Below are positions 2-27,907 of a stretch of 32,000 nucleotides of DNA, in pieces. The stretch is from Propionibacteriaceae bacterium. Lineage in GTDB: Bacteria; Actinomycetota; Actinomycetes; Propionibacteriales; Propionibacteriaceae. The stretch is from NCBI GenBank assembly GCA_031256725.1, contig JAIRQE010000005.1, positions 113,250 to 145,249 on the forward strand. Reading direction: 5' to 3'. The notes beneath the pieces were generated by a model that was not told the origin of the DNA, made no database searches, and worked only from the letters and a program-made list of their open reading frames with translations. Made by a program: the position numbers and the translations under genes. The first letter of the stretch is position 1. Each line of letters begins with the position of its first letter.

Positions 2-760
2 AACGGAAAAGGTGGCGCTGGGAAGACTCCCACAACCATCTGTTTGGCTGCAGTCTTTGCGCGACTAGGAGGTTCAGGGGTTCTGGCGTGGGACAACAAC
101 CAGACCCGTGGAACCCTCGGATGGCGTACCGAACAGGGACCCCACCAGGCCACACTCCTTGATCTTCTCCCTGCGATTCCACAGTTGTTGGATCCTGAGG
201 CCAATGCGACCCATATCGCACCCTATGTTCATCATCAAAGTCGAGACCTTTTTGACGTACTGCGTTCAAAGTCCGTGGTTCTCGCTGATGAGCAGAGGAT
301 CACGCCCTATGACGTGGATGCGATCTGGCGAGTGGCGACCAAGTACTACCGCCTCATCATCATGGACTCCGGCAACGACGAGTCTGATCCCATGTGGCGA
401 CGGATGATCGACCACACCGACCAGTTGGTGACCGCCACAACGACTCGCGCTGACCATGCTGAAGCTGGTGCCCTACTTCTGGAGGCACTCATGAGGCGCA
501 ATGAGCATAGTGCCCGCCTCGCCAAGAACTCGGTTACCGTGATCACACAATCCGATCCTAAGGCTCCCGAGGAATCCATTCGTAGGATTTCTGAGGGGTA
601 CCAAACCCTGTCACGCTCTGTGGTACACGTACCCTACGACCCCTCGATGCTTGAAGGCACCCTGTTCTACGACAACCTCAAGCCCACCACTCAAAGAGCC
701 TGGTTGATGGCTGCTGCGGCTGTGGCCAATGGCCTGAGCGCCCAAATGCCCCTGGCGTGA
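2..760 (+). CDS. MinD/ParA-family P-loop ATPase, 5' end cut by the window edge
   Basis: The frame of track ORF 44..760 stays open back to nt 2. It reads NGKGGAGKTPTTICLAAVFARLGG, a deviant Walker A (KGGxGKT) typical of ParA/MinD ATPases. RLIIMDSGND fits a hydrophobic-strand-plus-Asp Walker B. The TTG at 44 is therefore internal. Confidence 0.75.
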   Translation, partial: NGKGGAGKTPTTICLAAVFARLGGSGVLAWDNNQTRGTLGWRTEQGPHQATLLDLLPAIPQLLDPEANATHIAPYVHHQSRDLFDVLRSKSVVLADEQRITPYDVDAIWRVATKYYRLIIMDSGNDESDPMWRRMIDHTDQLVTATTTRADHAEAGALLLEALMRRNEHSARLAKNSVTVITQSDPKAPEESIRRISEGYQTLSRSVVHVPYDPSMLEGTLFYDNLKPTTQRAWLMAAAAVANGLSAQMPLA

Positions 761-796
761 AAGTACCCCCTGAGATATAACAGGTACACTAGTTGC

Positions 797-1375
797 ATGT
801 CCACTGAGCATACTGTTACTCCGTCGCGCGCTGGGTTGCCTTGGATTTCCTTGGTCGCACGACTCATCATTGGCGGAGCACTACTCATCGCTGGCCTACT
901 ATCCATCGTGAATCTCAGGCGATCAGTGGTTAAGGTACAAGCCTACGAACTGCCCATCCCGGAGTTCCTCGTGACCCTCATAGGGTACTGCCTACCCGTA
1001 GTGGAGATTGTGGTGGGGGCAGCAATCCTTGCTGGTTTCCTGACTCGCTGGACTGCAGCAATCGGTGGATTCCTCATGATCGTCTACATCGCTGGCATCG
1101 CCTCAGCTTGGGCCCGTGGGCTCAATATCGACTGCGGATGTTTCACCCCTGGCGGGATGCTGGAGCCTGGACAGGACACCAAATACCTCACCGACATTGT
1201 GCGGGACATCGGCTTCCTTGCCTGTTCGGTGTGGCTCGTCATCTTCCCAACCTCACGAATCTCGATAGATTCGTGGATCAGATCTCCGATTGAACAGGAG
1301 CACTATAGTGACCAAGAAAAAGCAGACATCAGTATCGAGTCAAAATGCGAAGAAAGTAGCAGCCGCCAAAGCTGA
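797..1375 (+). CDS. MauE/DoxX-family redox-associated membrane protein
   Basis: 192 aa with about four hydrophobic helices. It carries the GLNIDCGCF cysteine motif typical of MauE-type proteins. It sits immediately upstream of two DsbA-like genes, and its hydrophilic tail overlaps the next ORF. Confidence 0.7.
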   Translation: MSTEHTVTPSRAGLPWISLVARLIIGGALLIAGLLSIVNLRRSVVKVQAYELPIPEFLVTLIGYCLPVVEIVVGAAILAGFLTRWTAAIGGFLMIVYIAGIASAWARGLNIDCGCFTPGGMLEPGQDTKYLTDIVRDIGFLACSVWLVIFPTSRISIDSWIRSPIEQEHYSDQEKADISIESKCEESSSRQS

Positions 1376-2192
1376 AGCCGCAAGGAAGAAGCGTAATCGC
1401 ATCATCATTGTGATCGTTGGTTTCATCGTGATCGCCTTGATACCTGTGGGTGCGGTCTTGTCACAAATGGATTCAACCCAACAGGATCCAGGTAACCCGG
1501 ATCAGACAGCGACGGATTCCCCCACGACCCAGTCCCCAACGTTCAACATTCCACCGAATGGTACTTCTGCTGCAGGCTGGATCTCAATGTCTAGCCCCAA
1601 TGTCAAACATGATGCCATCATCATTGATGAGCATGTTGACTATCAGTGTGGCCACTGCCAAGTCACGGACGCCATTGTTGGTGGCCACTTCCAGGAACTC
1701 GTGGACCGTGGCGATATCATTGTGAGAGTGCACATGCGTAGCTTCATGGATACCAACAAGGGGGTATTCGTCTCAGTTCCAACTGGAGCAGCCGCCGCCT
1801 GTGCTGATGTCGTAGGACGCTACGCCGACTATCATGAAGTCGCATTCAAACATGCCGTGGAGGGCACTCTCACAGCATCACCCGAGCAACTCCGTGATCA
1901 GTTCCCCCAAGAGATTGGCATCACTGGAGATGATCTCACTCGTTTCCAGACCTGTGTCGACAATAACGAGATGCTGGAATACGTCGAAAAGATGGAGTCC
2001 ACCAACCTCAAATCACGGACCATTAACGGAGGTGATCAGGATCCCCCCAAGGGTACTCCGGCCTTCTTCGCCAACTCTAATCCTTTCACAATGAATCAGA
2101 TCGTAGGCGAGGATGAGGCTACCCAATCTTATGCTCCGATCTATGGATCAGCCGACGACTTGCTTGCTTTCTTGAGGACAGTGGCAAACTAG
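1290..2192 (+). CDS. DsbA-family thiol:disulfide oxidoreductase, membrane-anchored (paralogue 1)
   Basis: Basic N-terminus, one TM helix (IIIVIVGFIVIALIPVGAVL) and a Thr/Pro linker. The thioredoxin-fold domain has a CxxC (YQCGHCQ) and a C-terminal GTPAFF (cis-Pro loop-like). Track start is TTG 1290. GTG 1308, preceded by AGGAG at 1293..1297, is the more likely start. Confidence 0.8.
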   Translation: MNRSTIVTKKKQTSVSSQNAKKVAAAKAEAARKKRNRIIIVIVGFIVIALIPVGAVLSQMDSTQQDPGNPDQTATDSPTTQSPTFNIPPNGTSAAGWISMSSPNVKHDAIIIDEHVDYQCGHCQVTDAIVGGHFQELVDRGDIIVRVHMRSFMDTNKGVFVSVPTGAAAACADVVGRYADYHEVAFKHAVEGTLTASPEQLRDQFPQEIGITGDDLTRFQTCVDNNEMLEYVEKMESTNLKSRTINGGDQDPPKGTPAFFANSNPFTMNQIVGEDEATQSYAPIYGSADDLLAFLRTVAN

Positions 2193-2205: not shown

Positions 2206-3138
2206 ATGACAGAAAAGAAAAGAAACATCACCCATCACTACACTCAACGGCAAACTGCCCTGAAAGCAGAAGCAGCCAAGAAGAGACGCAAACGCATCAT
2301 TATCACTGTTGTTGGTCTGATCGTAATCGCTCTTGTACCTGTGGGTGTTGTTCTATCTCAGTTGAACGACACCACATCAAGCAAGCCCAATACCCATGAT
2401 TTTCCGAGTGGGACACCACAGACTCCCCCCACCATAACCAAGGTCGGCGACATCCTCATCCCTCCGTATGGATCTGAGCAGATGGCTTGGATTACTACAA
2501 CCCACGCACCTAAACCCGATGCTCTCATTGTCAACGAACACGTTGAGTACCAATGTGACCGCTGCCAATTGGTACATTCCCTGTATAGCGACCTCTTCCA
2601 AGAACTCGCAGATCGTGGCGACATTGTTCTTCAGATACATCTCCGCTCATTCCTGGACAAAGGCACCTATGAATCCAATGGTGATGTTCTTGATGAGACT
2701 GCTCGCGGAATGAGTCTTTCCACCGTCGCTGCATCAGTCTGCGCCGATACGGTCGGGATGTTTTCTGCCTACCATGATGCTGCCTTCACCCACGCATATA
2801 AACAAACCCTGGATGCGTCCCTTGAGCAGTTGATCATACAGATCCCCAATGAGATCGGGATGACTGGTGGTGAACTGGAAAATTTCCAAGAATGTGTCAC
2901 CACCGAGATGATGCTCCCCTATGTCTATGCGATGGAGAAGACGAATCTCACATCTCGAACCATCAATGGCAAGGATCACGACACGGTTAGGGGAACTCCC
3001 GCTTTCTTCATCGACGGAAACTTCATGATGATGTCAGAGATCGTTGGTCTCACGGAGGACCAAACAGACTATATGGCGCTCTTTACCACTGCGGACGAGT
3101 TGCTTACCTACCTCATATCAGTTTCTAAGCTACCTTAA
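2206..3138 (+). CDS. DsbA-family thiol:disulfide oxidoreductase, membrane-anchored (paralogue 2)
   Basis: Same architecture as the preceding gene, so a tandem paralogue. The KAEAAKKRRKRIIITVVGLIVIALVPVGVVLSQ anchor is nearly identical. The CxxC is YQCDRCQ and the C-terminal motif is GTPAFF. Confidence 0.8.
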   Translation: MTEKKRNITHHYTQRQTALKAEAAKKRRKRIIITVVGLIVIALVPVGVVLSQLNDTTSSKPNTHDFPSGTPQTPPTITKVGDILIPPYGSEQMAWITTTHAPKPDALIVNEHVEYQCDRCQLVHSLYSDLFQELADRGDIVLQIHLRSFLDKGTYESNGDVLDETARGMSLSTVAASVCADTVGMFSAYHDAAFTHAYKQTLDASLEQLIIQIPNEIGMTGGELENFQECVTTEMMLPYVYAMEKTNLTSRTINGKDHDTVRGTPAFFIDGNFMMMSEIVGLTEDQTDYMALFTTADELLTYLISVSKLP

Positions 3139-8258: not shown

Positions 8259-8290
8259 CTGTCATGCTGCGCGAAGTCGCAGCATCCAGA
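8259..8290 (-). repeat. hairpin repeat copy S1 (reverse orientation): TCTGG ATGCTGCG ACTTCG CGCAGCAT GACAG
   Basis: Perfect 8-bp stem (8264..8271 / 8278..8285) and 6-nt loop. Conserved flanks CTGTC (8259..8263) and CCAGA (8286..8290). It abuts the recO SD. Confidence 0.8.
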
Positions 8291-8315: not shown

Positions 8316-8348
8316 TCTGGATTCTGCGACTGTCGCGCAGAATGACAG
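8316..8348 (+). repeat. hairpin repeat copy S2: TCTGG ATTCTGCG ACTGTCG CGCAGAAT GACAG
   Basis: Perfect 8-bp stem (8321..8328 / 8336..8343) and 7-nt loop, with the same flanks as S1, S3 and S4. It ends 26 nt before the uppS ATG. Confidence 0.8.
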
Positions 8349-8373: not shown

Positions 8374-9147
8374 ATGGTCCAAGGTTATACTCGGCCCGAG
8401 AAGAGGCCCCCGACCCCACATCCATCGGGCGCGGTTGCGCCAACTGGGATAACAGTACCCGCCCATGTCGCCATCGTCATGGATGGCAATGGTCGTTGGG
8501 CTAAGCAACGTGGATTGCCACGTACTGATGGACATGAGCGTGGTGAAGGAGCATTGTTCGATGTCATTGAAGGTGCTATTGAGGTGGGCCTGAAAGCCTT
8601 GACTGTTTATGCCTTTTCCACCGAAAACTGGAAACGCTCCCCCGCTGAGGTTCACTGGCTCATGGGATTCAACCGTGACACCATTCACCGTCGCCGAGGG
8701 GATCTGGATGCACTCGGAGTGAAGATTCGTTGGGCAGGACGTCGCCCCAAACTCTGGGCCTCAGTCATCAAGGAATTGGAAACCGCCGAAGAGATCACCA
8801 AGGACAACACCACACTCACCCTCCAGTTTTGCGTGAACTATGGTGGTCGAGCCGAGATCACCGATGCCGCTCGACGCATCGCCCACGATGCCCAGACTGG
8901 GAAGCTGGATCCTGATCGCCTCACAGAAGCCCGCTTCGCCAAGTACCTCTACTGCCCCGAGATCGCTGACGTTGACCTTTTTGTACGCTCCTCCGGCGAA
9001 CAACGTACCTCCAACTTCCTTATCTGGCAGGCCGCCTATGCTGAGATGGTTTTCCTGGACGTACTATGGCCCGACTTCGACCGTCGGGACCTCTGGAAAG
9101 CCATCGAACTCTACAACGACCGAGAGCGCCGATTTGGGAGTGCCTAA
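8374..9147 (+). CDS. uppS: isoprenyl (undecaprenyl/decaprenyl) diphosphate synthase, cis-prenyltransferase
   Basis: 257 aa. [23 protein letters not shown], and [14 protein letters not shown] near the C-terminus, with a C-terminal RRFG. Confidence 0.93.
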
Positions 9148-12418: not shown

Positions 12419-12517
12419 AGGAATACTCTACTGGATTGAAATAGGGTCACAGTCACCACATTCACTCCCACGTTCATCAGCAAGTCCTATACGCCAAGAG
12501 ATACGTCCCCTGACACA

Positions 12518-12526
12518 CCCCCCCCC
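12518..12526. repeat. C9 (G9 on the purN strand) homopolymer tract
   Basis: Nine consecutive C at 12518..12526. They are flanked by the direct repeat CCCCTGACAC (12507..12516 and 12523..12532, overlapping the tract). Confidence 0.9.
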
Positions 12527-14670: not shown

Positions 14671-14943
14671 TTATGTCGAAGGACAGTCAGCAAGCCCGAC
14701 CTGCTCATCCCATTGATCATAGTCGGTGAGGAAACCCTCAGCATCGACATTGACTTCACGCTCTGCGATGGTTGAGGTTTCCACGGCTGTTGAGTCTTTG
14801 ATGGCAACGCGTGTAGTTCCCACTGTCGGTTGAGTCTGCGGAGTAATGGTCTTCGATTTCTCCGACTCTTTCTTAGTCCGTACGATGTACGGCTTCATTC
14901 GGTGAAGAAATCTTCTGTGGATCGATGACGTGTTTCCCTCCAT
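14671..14943 (-). CDS. hypothetical small protein (75-90 aa) with a DsrC/TusE-like D-x-EGFL-x4-W motif; uncertain
   Basis: Only sizeable minus-strand ORF in the 564-bp pcrA-perM gap. It ends ...VNVDAEGFLTDYDQWDEQVGLADCPST*. Its TAA overlaps the ATG (TAATG) of a 33-codon ORF (MKLFEVDLFDGAKAVVSATDFVKLLEGSQIIFI). Codon first-base G enrichment is gene-like. No strong SD for ATG 14898; GGGGG precedes ATG 14943. Confidence 0.3.
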   Translation of the reverse strand: MEGNTSSIHRRFLHRMKPYIVRTKKESEKSKTITPQTQPTVGTTRVAIKDSTAVETSTIAEREVNVDAEGFLTDYDQWDEQVGLADCPST

Positions 14944-15086: not shown

Positions 15087-17699
15087 CTACAGCTTCTCCA
15101 CTGGGGAGTGTTTGAGCGAAAGGATCTTCGTACCATAGGAGCCGAAGTCGACCTTGGCTCGAGGATCGCCACTATGATCGAAGGCTTCGAGTACTGTACC
15201 CAATCCGAAGGAGGAGTGGATCACTCGGTCTCCAGCTACGAGATCAGGAACGATCTTAGGCTTTGCGGAGGTGGAACGGATCGAGGATTGAAGTTTTTCG
15301 GGTGCCGTTTTGGTACGCATCTGTGGAGTGGGAGCGACACTTGCCCCCCAGTTGGCGACTCGTCCCTGGCGGCGCCATTCGATGAGTCGTTCGGGAATCT
15401 CACTCAGGAATCGACTCTCGGGATTGTAGGCCGGATTCCCCCAGAGGGTACGTACCTCGCTGCGTGAGACATAGAGTCTGTTGCGGGCACGGGTCAATCC
15501 GACGTAGGCGAGACGTCTTTCCTCCTCTAGTTCTGCACGTGATGATTGGGCTCTCTCATGAGGGAATAACCCCTCCTCGAATCCAGTCACAAAGACAGTG
15601 TCGAACTCTAGCCCCTTGGCTGTGTGGAGGGTCATCAGGGTGACCACTGCCTCACCCACTTTCCCGTCAGGGATCTGATCGGAGTCGGCTACGAGAGCGA
15701 TCCTTTCCAGGAAGGCTGGCAGGGAGTCATCAGGTTCTGGTGCTCCCATGAGTCCTACGTGATTATCGTCGTGGGTTTCCCCGGATTCTTGTCTGGATCC
15801 TGCGACGGAGCGCAGGATGACGGGGTTGGACTCTGAACTACCCAACCATTCGCCTGCATCCCCGTCCAGGGGATCATCGTCATGGGTGATCCCATCCTCG
15901 ACATCAATCTCGTGAGCTGCCCCAACGAACTCCGTCGCAACAGCAATGAGTTCAGCGAGGTTCTCCAGTCGAGTCTCATCTTGGGGGTCTTGGGAATCCT
16001 TAAGAATGTCGAGATAACCAGACTCTTGAAGGATGGACCTCAGGATCTCGTCGGCGGGCACCCCCGCAGTAATCATCTCGCGATGCTTCGACATCAACTC
16101 AGCAAACCGAGCTAAGCCATTGACCGCACGAGCACTCAACCCCGGAATAGTGTCGGCACCCTCAATGGCTTCGGTAATCGTGATCGACTTCGCCCGAGCA
16201 TGAGACCTTACAGTCTCCTGAGTCGTATCCCCGATACCACGCCGAGGTACGTTGATGATCCGCTCAATAGACACCTCATCAGCCGGATTAGCCAAGGCCC
16301 TCAAATAGGCGATGGCATCGCGTACCTCCCGACGCTCATAGAACTTCACGCCACCGACAACCCGATAGGGAACCCCCAACCGAATGAAGACATCCTCAAC
16401 AGCCCGAGACTGGGCATTCGTACGATAAAAAACAGCCGCATCCCCTAACCGCGACTCCCCCGCAGCCGAGAGGGTTCGTATCTCGTCAGCGATAAACCGG
16501 GCCTCATCATGCTCGGTGTCCCCCACATAGCCAACCACAAGCGGACCATCTCCCGCATCAGTCCACAGGTTCTTCTCAGGCCGGGAACGATTGTGCCGAA
16601 TCAGTGAATTGGCAGCCGAAAGAATGTTCTGGGTCGAACGGTAATTCTGTTCCAGTTGGATGACCCGGGCACCCGGAAAGTCCTCAGAAAAGTTGAGGAT
16701 ATTCGTGATCGACGCCCCCCGGAAAGCATAGATCGACTGATCCGAATCACCAACCACCATCAACTCTGGAGCCTCACCATGCCCAGCCCCACCTTCAGGA
16801 GAACAGAGCAACTGTATTAACACGTACTGCGCATGGTTGGTGTCCTGATATTCATCCACAAGTACGTGCCGGAATCGCCGACGGTACTTCTCACGAACCT
16901 CTGAATGCTCCCGAAACAAACGTACTGTCGACATCAGAAGGTCATCAAAATCCAGAGCCTCGGCCGCAATCAAGCGATCCCTATATTCAGCATAAACCTC
17001 AGCATAAACACTCACTGGATATTTAGTACTCGAAGCCAAGGCCTCATCCGCCCACACCAGCGCATTCTTCTGATCAGAGATCCACGAGCGTACCGTTCGT
17101 ACAGGAAACTTCTTTGTATCCAGGTTCTTCTCGCGAAGAATCGTACTCACAAGTCTCTTCGAATCCATGTCATCGTAGATCGAAAAAGTCTTCGACACCC
17201 CAAGTTTGTCGATATCGGCCCGAAGGATGCGTACACACGCACTGTGGAAGGTCGCCACCCACATGTACCGCGAGCGATTCCCCACTAGTTCGCCAACCCG
17301 CTCCCTCATCTCAGCAGCAGCCTTATTCGTGAAGGTGATCGCCAGGATCGCACCAGGATGTACCCCACCAGCAGAGATCAAATAGGCAATCCTTCGAGTC
17401 AGTACACGAGTCTTCCCCGACCCTGCCCCCGCCACGACAAGCAGCGGTGACCCACAATGAAGGACAGCCTGCTCTTGCGGAGGATTGAGCCCCTCAACAA
17501 GGGCGGCAATACGATCAGCCTGAGAGGGTGAGTCATCGTCTCGAGAGTACCCATGGTCTGGCGAGAATCCTTGGTCGTGAGTGTACCCATCCTCAGTAGG
17601 AGGCTCAGCCTCAGGATCAGGTGGTGGCTCACTCATCTGTGCAGCGAACAGCGCCTCCACATCCTCTGCAGAGAAACCTTCATCAAACACCGAATTCAT
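15087..17699 (-). CDS. pcrA: ATP-dependent DNA helicase PcrA (UvrD/Rep superfamily 1)
   Basis: 870 aa. Walker A AGAGSGKTRVLT, VDEYQDTN, QNYRST, and LHTAKGLEFDTVFVTG followed by RRLAYVGLTRAR. It has an acidic N-terminal extension and a C-terminal Tudor-like tail typical of actinobacterial PcrA/UvrD1. Confidence 0.93.
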   Translation of the reverse strand: MNSVFDEGFSAEDVEALFAAQMSEPPPDPEAEPPTEDGYTHDQGFSPDHGYSRDDDSPSQADRIAALVEGLNPPQEQAVLHCGSPLLVVAGAGSGKTRVLTRRIAYLISAGGVHPGAILAITFTNKAAAEMRERVGELVGNRSRYMWVATFHSACVRILRADIDKLGVSKTFSIYDDMDSKRLVSTILREKNLDTKKFPVRTVRSWISDQKNALVWADEALASSTKYPVSVYAEVYAEYRDRLIAAEALDFDDLLMSTVRLFREHSEVREKYRRRFRHVLVDEYQDTNHAQYVLIQLLCSPEGGAGHGEAPELMVVGDSDQSIYAFRGASITNILNFSEDFPGARVIQLEQNYRSTQNILSAANSLIRHNRSRPEKNLWTDAGDGPLVVGYVGDTEHDEARFIADEIRTLSAAGESRLGDAAVFYRTNAQSRAVEDVFIRLGVPYRVVGGVKFYERREVRDAIAYLRALANPADEVSIERIINVPRRGIGDTTQETVRSHARAKSITITEAIEGADTIPGLSARAVNGLARFAELMSKHREMITAGVPADEILRSILQESGYLDILKDSQDPQDETRLENLAELIAVATEFVGAAHEIDVEDGITHDDDPLDGDAGEWLGSSESNPVILRSVAGSRQESGETHDDNHVGLMGAPEPDDSLPAFLERIALVADSDQIPDGKVGEAVVTLMTLHTAKGLEFDTVFVTGFEEGLFPHERAQSSRAELEEERRLAYVGLTRARNRLYVSRSEVRTLWGNPAYNPESRFLSEIPERLIEWRRQGRVANWGASVAPTPQMRTKTAPEKLQSSIRSTSAKPKIVPDLVAGDRVIHSSFGLGTVLEAFDHSGDPRAKVDFGSYGTKILSLKHSPVEKL
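15792..15823 (+). repeat. hairpin repeat copy S4 inside pcrA: TCTGG ATCCTGCG ACGGAG CGCAGGAT GACGG
   Basis: Perfect 8-bp stem (15797..15804 / 15811..15818). About 40 nt of near-identity to S3. Lies within the pcrA ORF. Confidence 0.8.
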
Positions 17700-17722
17700 C
17701 CTTCATCAAACACCGAATTCAT
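17677..17722. repeat. perfect 23-bp tandem duplication spanning the pcrA start codon
   Basis: CCTTCATCAAACACCGAATTCAT occurs at 17677..17699 and again at 17700..17722. Each copy contains CAT, which is ATG on the minus strand. Confidence 0.95.
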
Positions 17723-19123: not shown

Positions 19124-19157
19124 GGGGGTGTTAGGGGACGTATCTCTTGACACCCCC
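19124..19157. terminator. G/C-rich hairpin filling the convergent GlsB / response-regulator gap (putative bidirectional terminator or repeat element)
   Basis: GGGGGTGT (19124..19131) pairs with ACACCCCC (19150..19157). The 18-nt interior can pair further (GGGGA-CGTA-TCTCT with G.U pairs). There is no clear U-tract on either side. It lies 5 nt after the GlsB stop and 3 nt before the regulator stop. Confidence 0.45.
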
Positions 19158-23583: not shown

Positions 23584-23721
23584 GGGAATGTGTGACCGTT
23601 GCTTCGCGAGAGTACGTTCGCTTCCGTGCTCGCAAAGCGTAGCACGGGCTCTCTTAACTTCGACAAAATAGCTACGCAATTTGGTCTCGTGTCTCCCGCG
23701 AAGCAACGGTCACACATCCCC
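23584..23721. repeat. 138-bp nested inverted-repeat element between icd and the CNNM gene
   Basis: Arms 23584..23612 and 23693..23721. The core ATGTGTGACCGTTGCTTCGCG (23588..23608) pairs perfectly over 21 bp with 23697..23717. An inner hairpin CCGTGCT-CGC-AAA-GCG-T-AGCACGG lies at 23624..23647. A further hairpin GCGAAT-ACTG-ATTCGC lies at 23549..23564. Confidence 0.85.
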
Positions 23722-25928: not shown

Positions 25929-27365
25929 TCAACCCACGAGCAGGGGGCGTACCAAAGCGGCCATGTACAGCGATCCGGTCACGAGTACTTCTTCTGCCAG
26001 GTCATCTAAAAGTACACGCAGGGCTTGATCCAGATCATGGATGATCCTCACCGGTATCCCCAGGTCTTGGGCTATGGCTGCTACTTGGGTGGGTGGTACT
26101 GAGGCTTTAATCTTGTCGTCTTTGCCGAGTTGGAACTGCGGAACAATAAGATGGGAGACTACGGGAGCAAGAGCTGCCAGGGTTTCGAGGATCTTGGTTT
26201 CGGGAGCTTTGGTGAGAGTGGCGAGTGTTGGAAAAGGGCCTAGGCCTTGAGCTTGGATGGTTTCCACCAGGGAAGCTACTTTTTGTGGGTTGTGAGCGCC
26301 GTCTAGGAGTACGCGGTGGTGGCCTGTCTGTATCCATTCGAATCTTGCAGGTGGTACGACGTGCATGAGTTCATCGTGGTGGGTTGGGATTGTGAACTTG
26401 TCGCGTTGGGCTATGTGGGAGACTGCAGCAAGAGCCAGATCCCAGTTGCGGAGTTGGTACTGAGGGATCTGGATTCGAAGCGTGGATTGACCAGCACAAA
26501 GATCCAAGGTGTGACGGGACTCTGAATCCAGCGATGGAGCCTGAGAGTACATAGTTTCATCTTCGGCACAGATTTCCGAAGTATGGTGAGTCTGTGGATC
26601 CTGCGACTGCGCGCAGGATGACAGGGGTGGGATACAGGATGACGGGAGTGGGACACAGGATCCAGGAACGACAACCATCCGGGCGTTGATCTCATCCGTC
26701 TTGGACTTGATGACCTCCAGGACTTCCAGGGATTGGTCGACAACGAAAACCACTCCACCTTCTACGATGATCCCGGCTTTCTGGGCAGCGATCTCAGCAA
26801 TCGTACCCCCGAGTTTCTCAGTATGATCCAGCCCTATCGGTCCGATGACCGCAACCTTGTCTGAGCGATTGAGGATATTGGTGGCATCCCTTGTACCACC
26901 AATGCCCACTTCGACAACTGCATAATCGACCCGTTCCTGCGCGAAAACCCATATTGCTAAGCAGATCATGAGCTCAAAGTAGGTGAGGTGACCGCGCAGA
27001 GGTTCCAGGAGGCTCAGCATCTGGTCGGCATAGCGACACAAGCGTTCCTCCTCCAGGGGGAGTCCACCCACTTGTACCCTCTCGTTGAGGGTGACTATGT
27101 GGGGGGAGACTGTTAGCCCGGTACGAAAGCCGCTGGCTTCCAGGAGAGCGCGAATATAGTAGCAAGTCGAGGTTTTCCCGGAGGTACCTGTGATGTGAAT
27201 GACGCGTAGATCCTGCTCGGGATTACCCAGGAGGTCCATCGCCTTGGCCATAGCAGCCAGTGAGGATCGCCCTGACTCTCGTGTACCTGCAAAAGTGAAA
27301 AGATCCTTGAGGAGACGATCAAAACCCCCACGGTCTAAAGATCGCCCCAGGATAGAATCCTCCAT
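25929..27365 (-). CDS. folC: folylpolyglutamate synthase/dihydrofolate synthase-like Mur-ligase family protein, carrying a repeat-derived insertion
   Basis: P-loop ITGTSGKTST, VVEVGIGGTRDATNIL and GPIGLDHTEKLGGTIAEIAAQKAGII are FolC hallmarks. MEDSILG (ATG 27365) is taken as the start, overlapping the upstream gene's 3' end. The track extends to 27416. A low-complexity Cys/Pro/Ser segment is encoded at 26540..26665. Confidence 0.8.
   Translation of the reverse strand: MEDSILGRSLDRGGFDRLLKDLFTFAGTRESGRSSLAAMAKAMDLLGNPEQDLRVIHITGTSGKTSTCYYIRALLEASGFRTGLTVSPHIVTLNERVQVGGLPLEEERLCRYADQMLSLLEPLRGHLTYFELMICLAIWVFAQERVDYAVVEVGIGGTRDATNILNRSDKVAVIGPIGLDHTEKLGGTIAEIAAQKAGIIVEGGVVFVVDQSLEVLEVIKSKTDEINARMVVVPGSCVPLPSSCIPPLSSCAQSQDPQTHHTSEICAEDETMYSQAPSLDSESRHTLDLCAGQSTLRIQIPQYQLRNWDLALAAVSHIAQRDKFTIPTHHDELMHVVPPARFEWIQTGHHRVLLDGAHNPQKVASLVETIQAQGLGPFPTLATLTKAPETKILETLAALAPVVSHLIVPQFQLGKDDKIKASVPPTQVAAIAQDLGIPVRIIHDLDQALRVLLDDLAEEVLVTGSLYMAALVRPLLVG
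26591..26624 (+). repeat. hairpin repeat copy S3 inside the folC-like gene: TCTGTGG ATCCTGCG ACTGCG CGCAGGAT GACAG
   Basis: Perfect 8-bp stem (26598..26605 / 26612..26619). Lies within the ORF and is followed by tandem copies of its right arm. Confidence 0.8.
26614..26663 (+). repeat. 21-bp tandem repeat (2.4 units) derived from the right arm of S3
   Basis: CAGGATGACAGGGGTGGGATA (26614..26634) and CAGGATGACGGGAGTGGGACA (26635..26655) match at 18 of 21 positions. A partial unit CAGGATCC follows (26656..26663). On the coding strand they read CVPLPSS / CIPPLSS / CAQSQDP. Confidence 0.85.
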
Positions 27366-27907
27366 GCTCCTGGTTCCCCTTCCACGATGACGATGTCTGT
27401 GTTCTGCAGGCGCCACTTCGGATCGGAATCAGCCTTAACATCACTGCGAGCATTGAGCCATGTGTAGAGGGCACCGCCATGGCTCACCACGACTGCGCAT
27501 TCATAGTCCTGGAGTTCGGCGATGGCAGCATCAAAGCGGGCAAAGAAAGTGTGACCGTCATCCCCATTGGGCATCGATCTATCGAGGTCCTTAGGCCAGG
27601 ATGTGATGACCTCTTGGTACCCCGTCCATTCGACATCCATCTCCCAATCCCCTGCGAAGATCTCGCGTACCCCCGGGTGGGTGATCAGTGGAACCTTGAA
27701 GGTGGCAGCAATAGGCTCACCAGTTTGGCGGGCGCGAGTGATGTCCGAGGTCATGACGATCTCAATGGGTTCCCCCTCAAGTCTGCCAGGAAGACTCGCT
27801 GCCTGCTCTTCACCAACCTCATCAAGAGGAGCCCCTGGAAAGTCAGTATCAAGAAGGTGGTTGACGTTGGATTGGGTACGTCCATGACGTATGAAGATGA
27901 TGCGCAC
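27335..27907 (-). CDS. histidine phosphatase (phosphoglycerate-mutase-like) family protein
   Basis: MRIIFIRHGRTQSN (RHG catalytic motif) and a later VVVSHGG (second His). Confidence 0.85.
   Translation of the reverse strand: MRIIFIRHGRTQSNVNHLLDTDFPGAPLDEVGEEQAASLPGRLEGEPIEIVMTSDITRARQTGEPIAATFKVPLITHPGVREIFAGDWEMDVEWTGYQEVITSWPKDLDRSMPNGDDGHTFFARFDAAIAELQDYECAVVVSHGGALYTWLNARSDVKADSDPKWRLQNTDIVIVEGEPGAWRILSWGDL

Follow-up and report, generated by a model that had tools for sequence, protein, structure and literature searches.

A palindromic repeat resembling CGTC-tagged REPs, in-frame within a predicted-disordered loop of a PcrA/UvrD1-like helicase gene of Propionibacteriaceae

Results

The repeat in the pcrA gene and its copies in the window

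The stretch of DNA analysed here (the window, 32,000 nt; positions 113,250 to 145,249 of contig JAIRQE010000005.1, assembly GCA_031256725.1, from a Propionibacteriaceae bacterium) carries four copies, S1 to S4, of a short palindromic repeat that resembles the CGTC-tagged class of repetitive extragenic palindromes (REPs), and one of these, S4, lies in-frame within a pcrA/uvrD1-like helicase gene (Table 1). The 870-aa product of this open reading frame (ORF) is 100% identical to an annotated protein of a Propionibacteriaceae metagenome-assembled genome and contains the Pfam domains UvrD-helicase, UvrD_C and AAA_19; its closest solved relative is M. tuberculosis UvrD1 (9DCI, E 1e-229), and G. stearothermophilus PcrA (1PJR) is matched at 7e-181. 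On the plus strand S4 (15794-15821) reads TGG (15794-96), ATCCTGCG (15797-15804), ACGGAG (15805-10), CGCAGGAT (15811-18) and GAC (15819-21), which in gene sense gives the order CC-GTC-ATCCTGCG-CTCCGT-CGCAGGAT-CCA. The pcrA copy and its minus-strand translation had been described in an initial annotation of this DNA, with which both the sequence of 15792-15847 and the ORF translation agree. Within the context ...SSESNPVILRSVAGSRQESGETHDDNH... the peptide P-V-I-L-R-S-V-A-G-S-R forms PcrA residues 626-636, the 28-nt core itself encoding V627-R636. In mRNA sense the hairpin folds with -14.3 kcal/mol (z score -4.2).

The 32-kb window holds four instances of the unit GGATnCTGCGAC-N3/4-GCGCAGnATGAC, where 0 are expected. 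Exact matches to the pattern GGATNCTGCGAC-N2-6-GCGCAGNATGAC lie at 8261-8287(-), 8319-8346(+), 15795-15821(+) and 26596-26622(+), as against 0 in 100 dinucleotide-preserving shuffles, and a covariance model built from 78 REP copies scores the four at 48.6-56.9 bits (E 1e-14 to 2e-17) and nothing else in the window significantly. All four have the 8-bp stem AT(C/T/G)CTGCG / CGCAG(G/A/C)AT and the tail CCA, and the free position of the stem is complementary in each (G:C in S1, T:A in S2, C:G in S3 and S4). The loop is of 6 nt in S1, S3 and S4 and of 7 nt in S2; the head is CCGTC in S4 and CTGTC in S1-S3, the two bases before GTC being pyrimidines in most of the 78 aligned copies. The earlier claim of nucleotide identity between S3 and S4 over about 40 nt translates into 89% identity over 36 nt (S3 26595-26630). 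The C-rich flank that precedes the head of S4 resembles those of S3 (CCACCCCT) and of copies in other genomes (such as CCACCCCC), the consensus of the covariance model reading ccuaccCC followed by GUCAU, and is either part of the REP element or its preferred target. The repeat is probably multi-copy in its genome: in addition to the four window copies, two of which make up a dimer, 26 matches at E<0.01 were found in the loci of 15 relatives (141 kb). A scan of the whole window at Rfam gathering thresholds matched no family.

Between the divergent recO and uppS genes, copies S1 and S2 form an inverted dimer whose tails point inward, and the 102-nt unit that they make up folds as a single long hairpin (-55.6 kcal/mol, z -7.7); an effect on either promoter of this divergent region is possible. 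Copy S3 lies in a folC-like gene, where the first part of an insertion between the two Mur-ligase domains consists of the REP and its two half-copies, the latter encoding a repeated SSC(V/I)P(P)L peptide. In the region of the remaining ~32 residues of this insertion (THHTSEICAEDETMYSQAPSLDSESRHTLDLC, 26430-26595), 26475-26523(-) matches the model weakly (7.4 bits, E 2.5); it has CCGTCA as head and AATCCA as tail and is possibly a second REP in decay.

A nucleotide-level, lineage-specific element

The initial annotation had taken the segment for an in-frame nucleotide repeat rather than a conserved piece of protein, and had proposed that orthologues from close and distant relatives be aligned. 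The frames in which the two host genes read the repeat differ, the folC-like copy giving S-S-C-A-Q-S-Q-D-P and the pcrA copy V-I-L-R-S-V-A-G-S. Inspection of the six frames of the unit shows a stop (TGA) in a single reverse frame, the other five being open, and both host ORFs are intact, with conserved domains on either side of the REP. A syntenic relative, L124 (contig WRIJ01000007 of the Propionibacteriaceae metagenome-assembled genome (MAG) Nt197P3bin38), with the same gene order and a PcrA 71% identical to that of the window, has no REP at the pcrA, folC-like or recO-uppS sites. Its PcrA loop measures 32 residues from HDDDP to DDSL, against 51 in the window, and its recO-uppS spacer 50 bp against 132 bp. 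Nor did the covariance model detect a copy in 80 more distant actinobacterial pcrA loci (542 kb), which were taken from a protein-based metagenome scan and represent relatives at most 58% identical. The block is absent, too, from the orthologues L126, L128 and L210-L212, and is thus lineage-specific, a point that the initial annotation had proposed to check. The REP is a nucleotide-level element and not a protein motif, because it is read in two frames, is lacking in L124, shows n/n' covariation in its stem and recurs as the same unit in at least 54 assemblies (see below).

Over 3004 nt that include the repeat, the window is 100% identical to a separately made Logan assembly of run SRR14710887, which argues against an assembly artefact. 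A search of JGI metagenome contigs with an anchored pattern for the filled and empty alleles gave no match, not even to the allele of the window.

The PcrA loop and its occupation in relatives

In an alignment of 29 sequences the most length-variable part of PcrA lies between ...LAELIAVATEFV and LPAFLERIALVADSD, where columns ~680-800 are mostly gaps. Residues 593-655 of the window protein (63 aa) align to no solved PcrA/UvrD homologue; the equivalent connection counts ~3 aa in G. stearothermophilus PcrA 1PJR (524-527) and 16 aa in M. tuberculosis UvrD1 9DCI (548-563). An AlphaFold2 model that is only moderate overall (mean predicted local distance difference test score, pLDDT, 65.8) puts residues 599-655 at pLDDT 27-44; on either side of them are helices 572-595 and 660-672. 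We take this loop to lie between the last helices of subdomain 2B. It is acidic, of low complexity and variable across all relatives, and the conserved helicase columns around it are intact, in keeping with the earlier placing of S4 in a low-complexity acidic stretch amid conserved helicase blocks. The expectation that the insertion would map to a surface loop likewise agrees with a pLDDT below 50 at 599-655 and with the lack of alignment to solved PcrA/UvrD structures. On this modelling the REP sits in a permissive, predicted-disordered loop of PcrA.

At the DNA level a CGTC-type hairpin lies within ~10 codons of the same loop position in four of ten related Propionibacteriaceae pcrA genes. 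In the window the copy is a forward one, of stem ATCCTGCG. L121/P0004 holds two, the forward one (stem ATCCTGCC) coming after a pair of 21-nt half-copies and the other (stem ATCCTGAC) lying in reverse. The forward copy of L122/P0003 is degenerate, and that of L127/P0002 is in reverse orientation, with the stem ATCCCGCC. The other six loops (L124, L126, L128 and L210-L212) are without a REP, and that of L126/P0006 is empty though the protein is 90% identical to P0004. Searched for remnants, the REP-free loops of L124 and L126 gave nothing significant and that of L128 a marginal signal (p ~0.03). The mixed orientations and stem variants, together with the empty L126, therefore point to several gains or losses, orientation and stem type suggesting at least 3-4 independent insertions. 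The recurrence fits survivorship at the only permissive site.

The initial annotation also pointed to a second small inverted repeat beside S4, GGTTGG/CCAACC. The repeat is present and does not exceed the chance level, as ~100 perfect 6-bp inverted repeats with a loop of 3-15 nt are expected per 32 kb by our own arithmetic, and a 75-nt fold that takes in both arms has z = -1.65. One arm consists of W-L-G codons (TGGTTGGG) that occur also in the REP-free L124, and the other belongs to the C-rich flank 5' of the head. This inverted repeat is probably coincidental.

Three further features of the pcrA gene were seen. An imperfect direct repeat, ACCCA(T/C)GACGAT(G/A)ATC, noticed by eye on the minus strand at 15761-15781 and 15872-15892, encodes THDDD and THDDN; its copies, spaced 111 nt, stand on either side of the segment that holds the REP, and may reflect a partial duplication of the loop or a compositional coincidence. 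Just 3' of the stop codon, 14910-14937(-) reads CACGTCATC followed directly by GATCCACAG and resembles a REP head fused to a REP tail with the core missing (10.7 bits in the covariance model, E 0.18); it could be due to chance or be the remnant of a deletion. At the start of the gene (17677-17722) there is an exact 23-nt tandem duplication, with ATGAATTCGGTGTTTGATGAAGG twice on the minus strand; its upstream copy gives rise to a mini-ORF of 8 codons (MNSVFDEG*) that ends in a TGA overlapping the ATG of pcrA. This end of the gene is covered by the Logan assembly, identical over its 3004 nt.

Distribution and structure of the family across genomes

A scan of 185,579 species-representative genomes with a 22-base pattern yielded at least 120 loci and at least 146 copies (150 with the four of the window) in at least 54 assemblies, whereas by our own arithmetic ~0.3 chance matches are expected in 596 Gb. 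The same 27-nt unit is thus found in at least 54 assemblies from ~7 phyla; the hosts (named by record title) and frequencies given in this section are those among the matches listed. Pseudomonadota are represented by Alcanivorax, Vitreoscilla, Burkholderiales, Cellvibrionaceae, Thiomicrospira, Rickettsiales and others, and further hosts belong to Desulfobacterota, Bacillota (Oscillospiraceae, Christensenellaceae), Campylobacterota, Elusimicrobiota (Endomicrobium) and Riflebacteria. The Actinomycetota hosts are five Propionibacteriaceae MAGs, two Coriobacteriia MAGs, Microbacterium, Ruaniaceae, Leucobacter celer and L. soli. Cultured isolates with the REP are L. celer, L. soli and Thiomicrospira microaerophila; most matches are to MAGs, many of which, to judge from isolate labels, presumably stem from termite guts.

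Complementary bases occupy the variable position of the stem in 146 of the 150 copies (C:G 93, T:A 45, G:C 7, A:T 1). When 40 actinobacterial copies were aligned by the model, 98.4% of cells paired, and two pairs showed compensatory changes in 21 cells, a level reached by 0 of 500 shuffles; the hairpin is thereby shown to be maintained. Among the 258 hairpins returned by a relaxed finder, 188 have the tail CCA, 170 a loop of 6 nt (consensus CGNAGT) and 32 a loop of 16 nt, and inverted dimers with the tails inward outnumber the opposite type by 64 to 19. Orphan tandem half-copies stand on the head side of 26 of 140 copies (~19%), against 3 of 140 on the tail side. The half-copy unit consists of the 3' arm and the head, CAGRATGAC plus 7-18 nt, with periods of 16-27 nt; the period of 21 nt is in-frame in both coding contexts, folC S3 and L121 pcrA (8598-8640).

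In other phyla the copies are mostly intergenic, and most ORFs that span the 150 pattern matches are spurious arginine-rich frames in high-GC DNA. The sole convincing further in-frame copy (L056, 2416-2443; MAG Hs463_bin120 of the Propionibacteriaceae) is read H-P-A-R-S-R-R-I-H and falls in the low-complexity stretch that links the two domains of a protein of 593 aa, the N-terminal part of which has weak Pfam matches of the ATP-pyrophosphatase type and the C-terminal part of which is an AIRC domain. A plasmid or phage was considered as a vehicle and rejected, the repeat being essentially absent from such collections: the 30-nt consensus had 0 matches in 72,556 plasmids, 0 in 50,697 phage records and 1 in 2.9 M IMG/VR contigs.

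Table 1. Repeat copies, host genes and associated features of the window
Feature	Position	Strand	Basis or detail
pcrA/uvrD1-like helicase ORF, 870 aa, intact, every conserved helicase column present	15087..17699	-	Pfam, alignment, PDB relatives
Hypervariable, predicted-disordered PcrA loop, residues 599-655, hosting the REP	15735..15905	-	Alignment, structure comparison, pLDDT
REP copy S4 inside pcrA	15794..15821	-	Covariance model 48.6 bits, E 1e-14
S4 head GTC	15821-15819	-	Preceded by CC
S4 arm ATCCTGCG	15818-15811	-	
S4 loop CTCCGT, 6 nt	15810-15805	-	
S4 arm CGCAGGAT	15804-15797	-	
S4 tail CCA	15796-15794	-	
C-rich flank 5' of the S4 REP head	15822..15829	-	CCAACCCC on gene strand
Small inverted repeat GGTTGG 15824-29 / CCAACC 15842-47	15824..15847	no strand	Judged coincidental
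REP copy S1	8261..8288	+	Stem ATGCTGCG, loop CGAAGT, tail CCA; 55.2 bits
REP copy S2	8318..8346	-	Stem ATTCTGCG, 7-nt loop
REP copy S3 inside folC-like (Mur-ligase family) ORF	26595..26622	-	56.9 bits; read L-S-S-C-A-Q-S-Q-D-P
Two 21-nt tandem half-copies, head side of S3	26623..26663	-	CAGGATGAC plus 12 nt on + strand
folC-like ORF (Mur_ligase_M + Mur_ligase_C)	25929..27416	-	57-aa insertion vs L124 between both domains

Discussion

We consider it very probable that S4 is one copy of a multi-copy, REP-class repeat with the anatomy of the CGTC-tagged type, which was inserted or copied into pcrA and is carried there as a near-neutral, selfish passenger. Our current model is that a REP would have been inserted, or copied, into the pcrA/uvrD1-like gene of a Propionibacteriaceae lineage, and that the landing site would have been the long, acidic and disordered PcrA loop, already hugely variable in length among relatives. 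The insertion adds ~10-12 residues (PVILRSVAGSR), which are tolerated because five of the six frames are open and the net insertion preserves the frame. S4 is most likely near-neutral selfish DNA and not a functional part of the helicase. By analogy with REP/REPIN and IS200/IS605 systems, the hairpin and its unpaired head may be recognized as single-stranded DNA and moved in trans, probably at the replication fork, by a RAYT-like enzyme of the Y1/HUH type; mobilization by such an enzyme is what we infer from this likeness. Single-stranded DNA transposition by Y1/HUH enzymes has been proposed for REP/RAYT and shown for IS200/IS605.

The text of the paper on CGTC-tagged REPs (Di Nocera, De Gregorio & Rocco 2013, BMC Genomics 14:522, PMC3733652) describes an unpaired CGTC, TGTC or CCTC head, a stem of 8-9 bp that almost always starts with a complementary A-T and then T-A, a loop of 4-5 nt (of other lengths in some families) and an unpaired 3-nt CCA tail. 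One inverted dimer type prevails, with the CCA tails facing, and no transposase is associated with these elements. Most are intergenic; some lie in-frame in genes of several phyla, many of them replication and repair genes, and Additional file 3 includes the UvrD/REP helicases RPE_2137 of R. palustris and Kole_1028 of K. olearia. The element of the window is alike in its (C/T)GTC head, its 8-bp stem with AT first, its CCA tail and its tails-inward dimer, and its sequence matches the anatomy of the CGTC-tagged superfamily, exactly so in head, stem and tail, with the loop length alone departing from it. The family of the window has in addition a subclass with a 16-nt loop, and the head-side tandem half-copies that accompany ~19% of the copies among the matches listed.

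Of the known in-frame repeats, the Rickettsia palindromic elements (RPEs), reportedly described by Ogata and colleagues in 2000 and 2002 as a palindromic repeat in-frame in protein-coding genes, offer a close parallel in mode of action. In both cases the same nucleotide element occurs in unrelated genes, in-frame and in a predicted surface or disordered segment; the insertion in the window moreover keeps the frame, is absent from orthologues and lies in a non-core segment, as an RPE-like insertion would. RPE-1, compared by description only, differs in its size (~100-150 bp, or 30-50 residues, as against a core of 28 nt and ~10 residues) and in the phylum and lifestyle of its host. RPE-1 proper was therefore rejected, given the 28-nt core and the Propionibacteriaceae host, as the identity of an element that works like an RPE. 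The likeness to Rickettsia drawn in the initial annotation holds as an analogy and is strengthened by the classing of RPE-6 as CGTC-1 and of RPE-4 as CGTC-4 (PMC3733652, text), a source whose UvrD/REP helicase cases also take the phenomenon beyond Rickettsia. The same text reports CGTC REPs from five phyla, mostly from alpha-Proteobacteria, with Actinomycetota unmentioned in it. The initial annotation knew of no equivalent in Actinomycetota, and we too found none: published text, searched both for the sequence itself and for palindromic elements lying in-frame in Actinobacteria, gave nothing relevant, figures not being text-searchable.

Short hairpins arranged as inverted doublets that fold into one hairpin, present in many, mostly intergenic copies and presumed to move by single-strand DNA transposition, are common to the family described here and to the REPIN-RAYT systems with GTAG-type REPs, which are said to go back to Bertels and Rainey (2011) and Nunvar and colleagues (2010). 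The heads differ, being CGTC/TGTC and not GTAG, and no RAYT gene flanked by repeats was found in the sampled loci. REPINs are usually species-specific and vertically inherited, whereas the sequence type of the window is common to several phyla. Neisseria dRS3, assigned to CGTC-1 in the text of PMC3733652, is alike in the logic of head, AT-stem and tail. It differs in its stem and loop sequences and in having its copies in clustered intergenic arrays. Two other kinds of element were rejected. A miniature inverted-repeat transposable element does not fit a single 28-nt hairpin that lacks terminal inverted repeats and target-site duplications, no duplication being visible on comparison of filled with empty sites (window with L124; L121/L122 with L126), and a CRISPR array does not fit copies on both strands at irregular distances of 30 nt to 11 kb. 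We know of no dRS3 or Correia-type repeat of Neisseria that lies in-frame in a helicase gene.

The repeat of the window is accordingly a new example, and possibly a new loop variant, of a described REP phenomenon. We have not found described its occurrence in Actinomycetota, its near-identity across phyla, the presence of different REP variants in one PcrA loop in four of ten related Propionibacteriaceae of the termite-gut type or the head-side tandem half-copies. The phenomenon of in-frame REP insertion, as seen with RPEs in Rickettsia, is thus extended to Actinomycetota, and part of the length variation of the acidic PcrA/UvrD1 loop in this Propionibacteriaceae clade is made by mobile hairpins, a concrete case of selfish DNA producing protein-length polymorphism in a repair helicase. 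In annotation, the peptides VILR.VAGS, SSCA.SQDP, HPARSRRI, DPATSRRMT and GSCDFAQDD should be recognized as repeat-derived.

We know of no dedicated transposase for CGTC REPs, and a search for a candidate was made in the sampled loci. None of the ten window ORFs scanned with Pfam contains a Y1_Tnp domain. A phmmer search with approximate IS200 TnpA and E. coli RAYT query sequences gave, as a lead only, one weak match, in the Thiomicrospira microaerophila locus L004, where an IS200-like Y1_Tnp ORF (460-1182, minus strand; PF01797, 25 bits with Pfam) stands ~3.7 kb from a REP dimer. The identity of the repeat across phyla and the asymmetric arrays of half-copies offer handles on what mobilizes CGTC-type REPs.

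A number of observations weigh against the view of S4 as a selfish CGTC-type passenger. The Y1_Tnp ORF of L004 is not flanked by REPs, and all-against-all clustering of 2522 ORFs from the 120 REP loci listed revealed only housekeeping families (ABC transporters etc.) as recurrent neighbours, in a test that is weak in that samples of 8 kb will seldom include a gene present once per genome. The loop, at 6 nt (7 in S2), exceeds the 4-5 nt of described CGTC REPs, a soft criterion, and the exact sequence type may already appear in Figure 2 of PMC3733652, the text of which is our basis for comparison. The metagenome scan yielded no empty-site allele of the host species, and the copy number is that of the 32-kb window. 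The neutrality of S4 is something that we infer; its stems are perfect while its loop has diverged from the CGNAGT consensus, and the recurrence of REPs in the PcrA loop of relatives could also mean selection or targeting.

A bolder reading of the same data is that the repeat represents an undescribed, unusually conserved branch of the CGTC REPs that has spread across phyla, that its repeated and independent in-frame colonization of the PcrA loop, in different orientations and stem variants, reflects targeting or a functional link and not merely survival where insertions are tolerated, and that the half-copies are footprints of copying. We put this forward tentatively and think it rather improbable. 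If true, one 27-nt type in at least 54 genomes of ~7 phyla would mean horizontal spread of the repeat or of its mobilizing enzyme, and the functional link would be one between hairpins and a helicase that handles HUH/rolling-circle and hairpin intermediates.

It is distinctly unlikely, in our judgement, that the hairpin is a functional cis-element kept by selection in pcrA and elsewhere, for instance as a signal in the stability or processing of the mRNA, as a place where translation pauses, or as a DNA target of a structure-specific protein, such as a REP binder like gyrase or integration host factor (IHF). Selection of this kind would suit stems that are kept perfect by compensatory changes beside an off-consensus loop in S4, the occurrence of different REP variants in one PcrA loop in four of ten related Propionibacteriaceae and the stability of the hairpin in mRNA sense; many REPs have, further, been argued to be transcribed and to act as RNA elements, with intragenic REPs clustering in replication and repair genes (PMC3733652, text). 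Yet the contexts are unrelated (a divergent promoter region, a folC-like gene and, in other phyla, mostly intergenic DNA), six of the ten relatives do without the REP, and orientation and variant vary among the carriers. The S4 hairpin is not followed by a terminator-type T-run and has no Rfam match, and the requirements of mobility explain the conservation of the stem equally well.

The view that the segment is ancestral, low-complexity protein of the PcrA loop with a convergent or compositional likeness at the nucleotide level draws on the acidic, low-complexity and variable character of the loop in all relatives, but is effectively refuted: over 36 nt the segment is 89% identical to a locus that uses a different frame (with 0 shuffle matches), it is lacking in L124 and the 80 distant loci, and other phyla have the same 27-nt unit outside coding sequence. 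An error of assembly or binning, such as a chimeric contig joined at a repeat, might be suspected given that the window comes from a MAG, as do most genome-collection matches, yet this is scarcely credible in view of the identical 3004 nt in the Logan assembly of SRR14710887, the preservation of the frame and of all downstream helicase motifs, the occurrence of the family in cultured isolates and the REPs at the same place in relatives from other samples.

Other repeats in the window

Three further repeats were seen elsewhere in the window. A 29-nt inverted repeat (23584-23612 / 23693-23721), 93% complementary with 80 nt between its arms and unrelated to the REP, lies in the intergenic region between a CNNM-family gene and an isocitrate/isopropylmalate dehydrogenase gene. 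A sequence of 26 nt occurs twice in inverted orientation, at 12495-12520 and 19124-19149 (92% complementary, 6.6 kb apart), and may belong to a further family of small repeats or be a binding site that the two loci share. Lastly, a direct repeat of 98 nt (1368-1465 and 2263-2360; 71% identical, spacing 895 nt) spans two adjacent plus-strand ORFs of ~300 aa, 1290..2192 and 2206..3138, and suggests that these are tandem paralogous genes.

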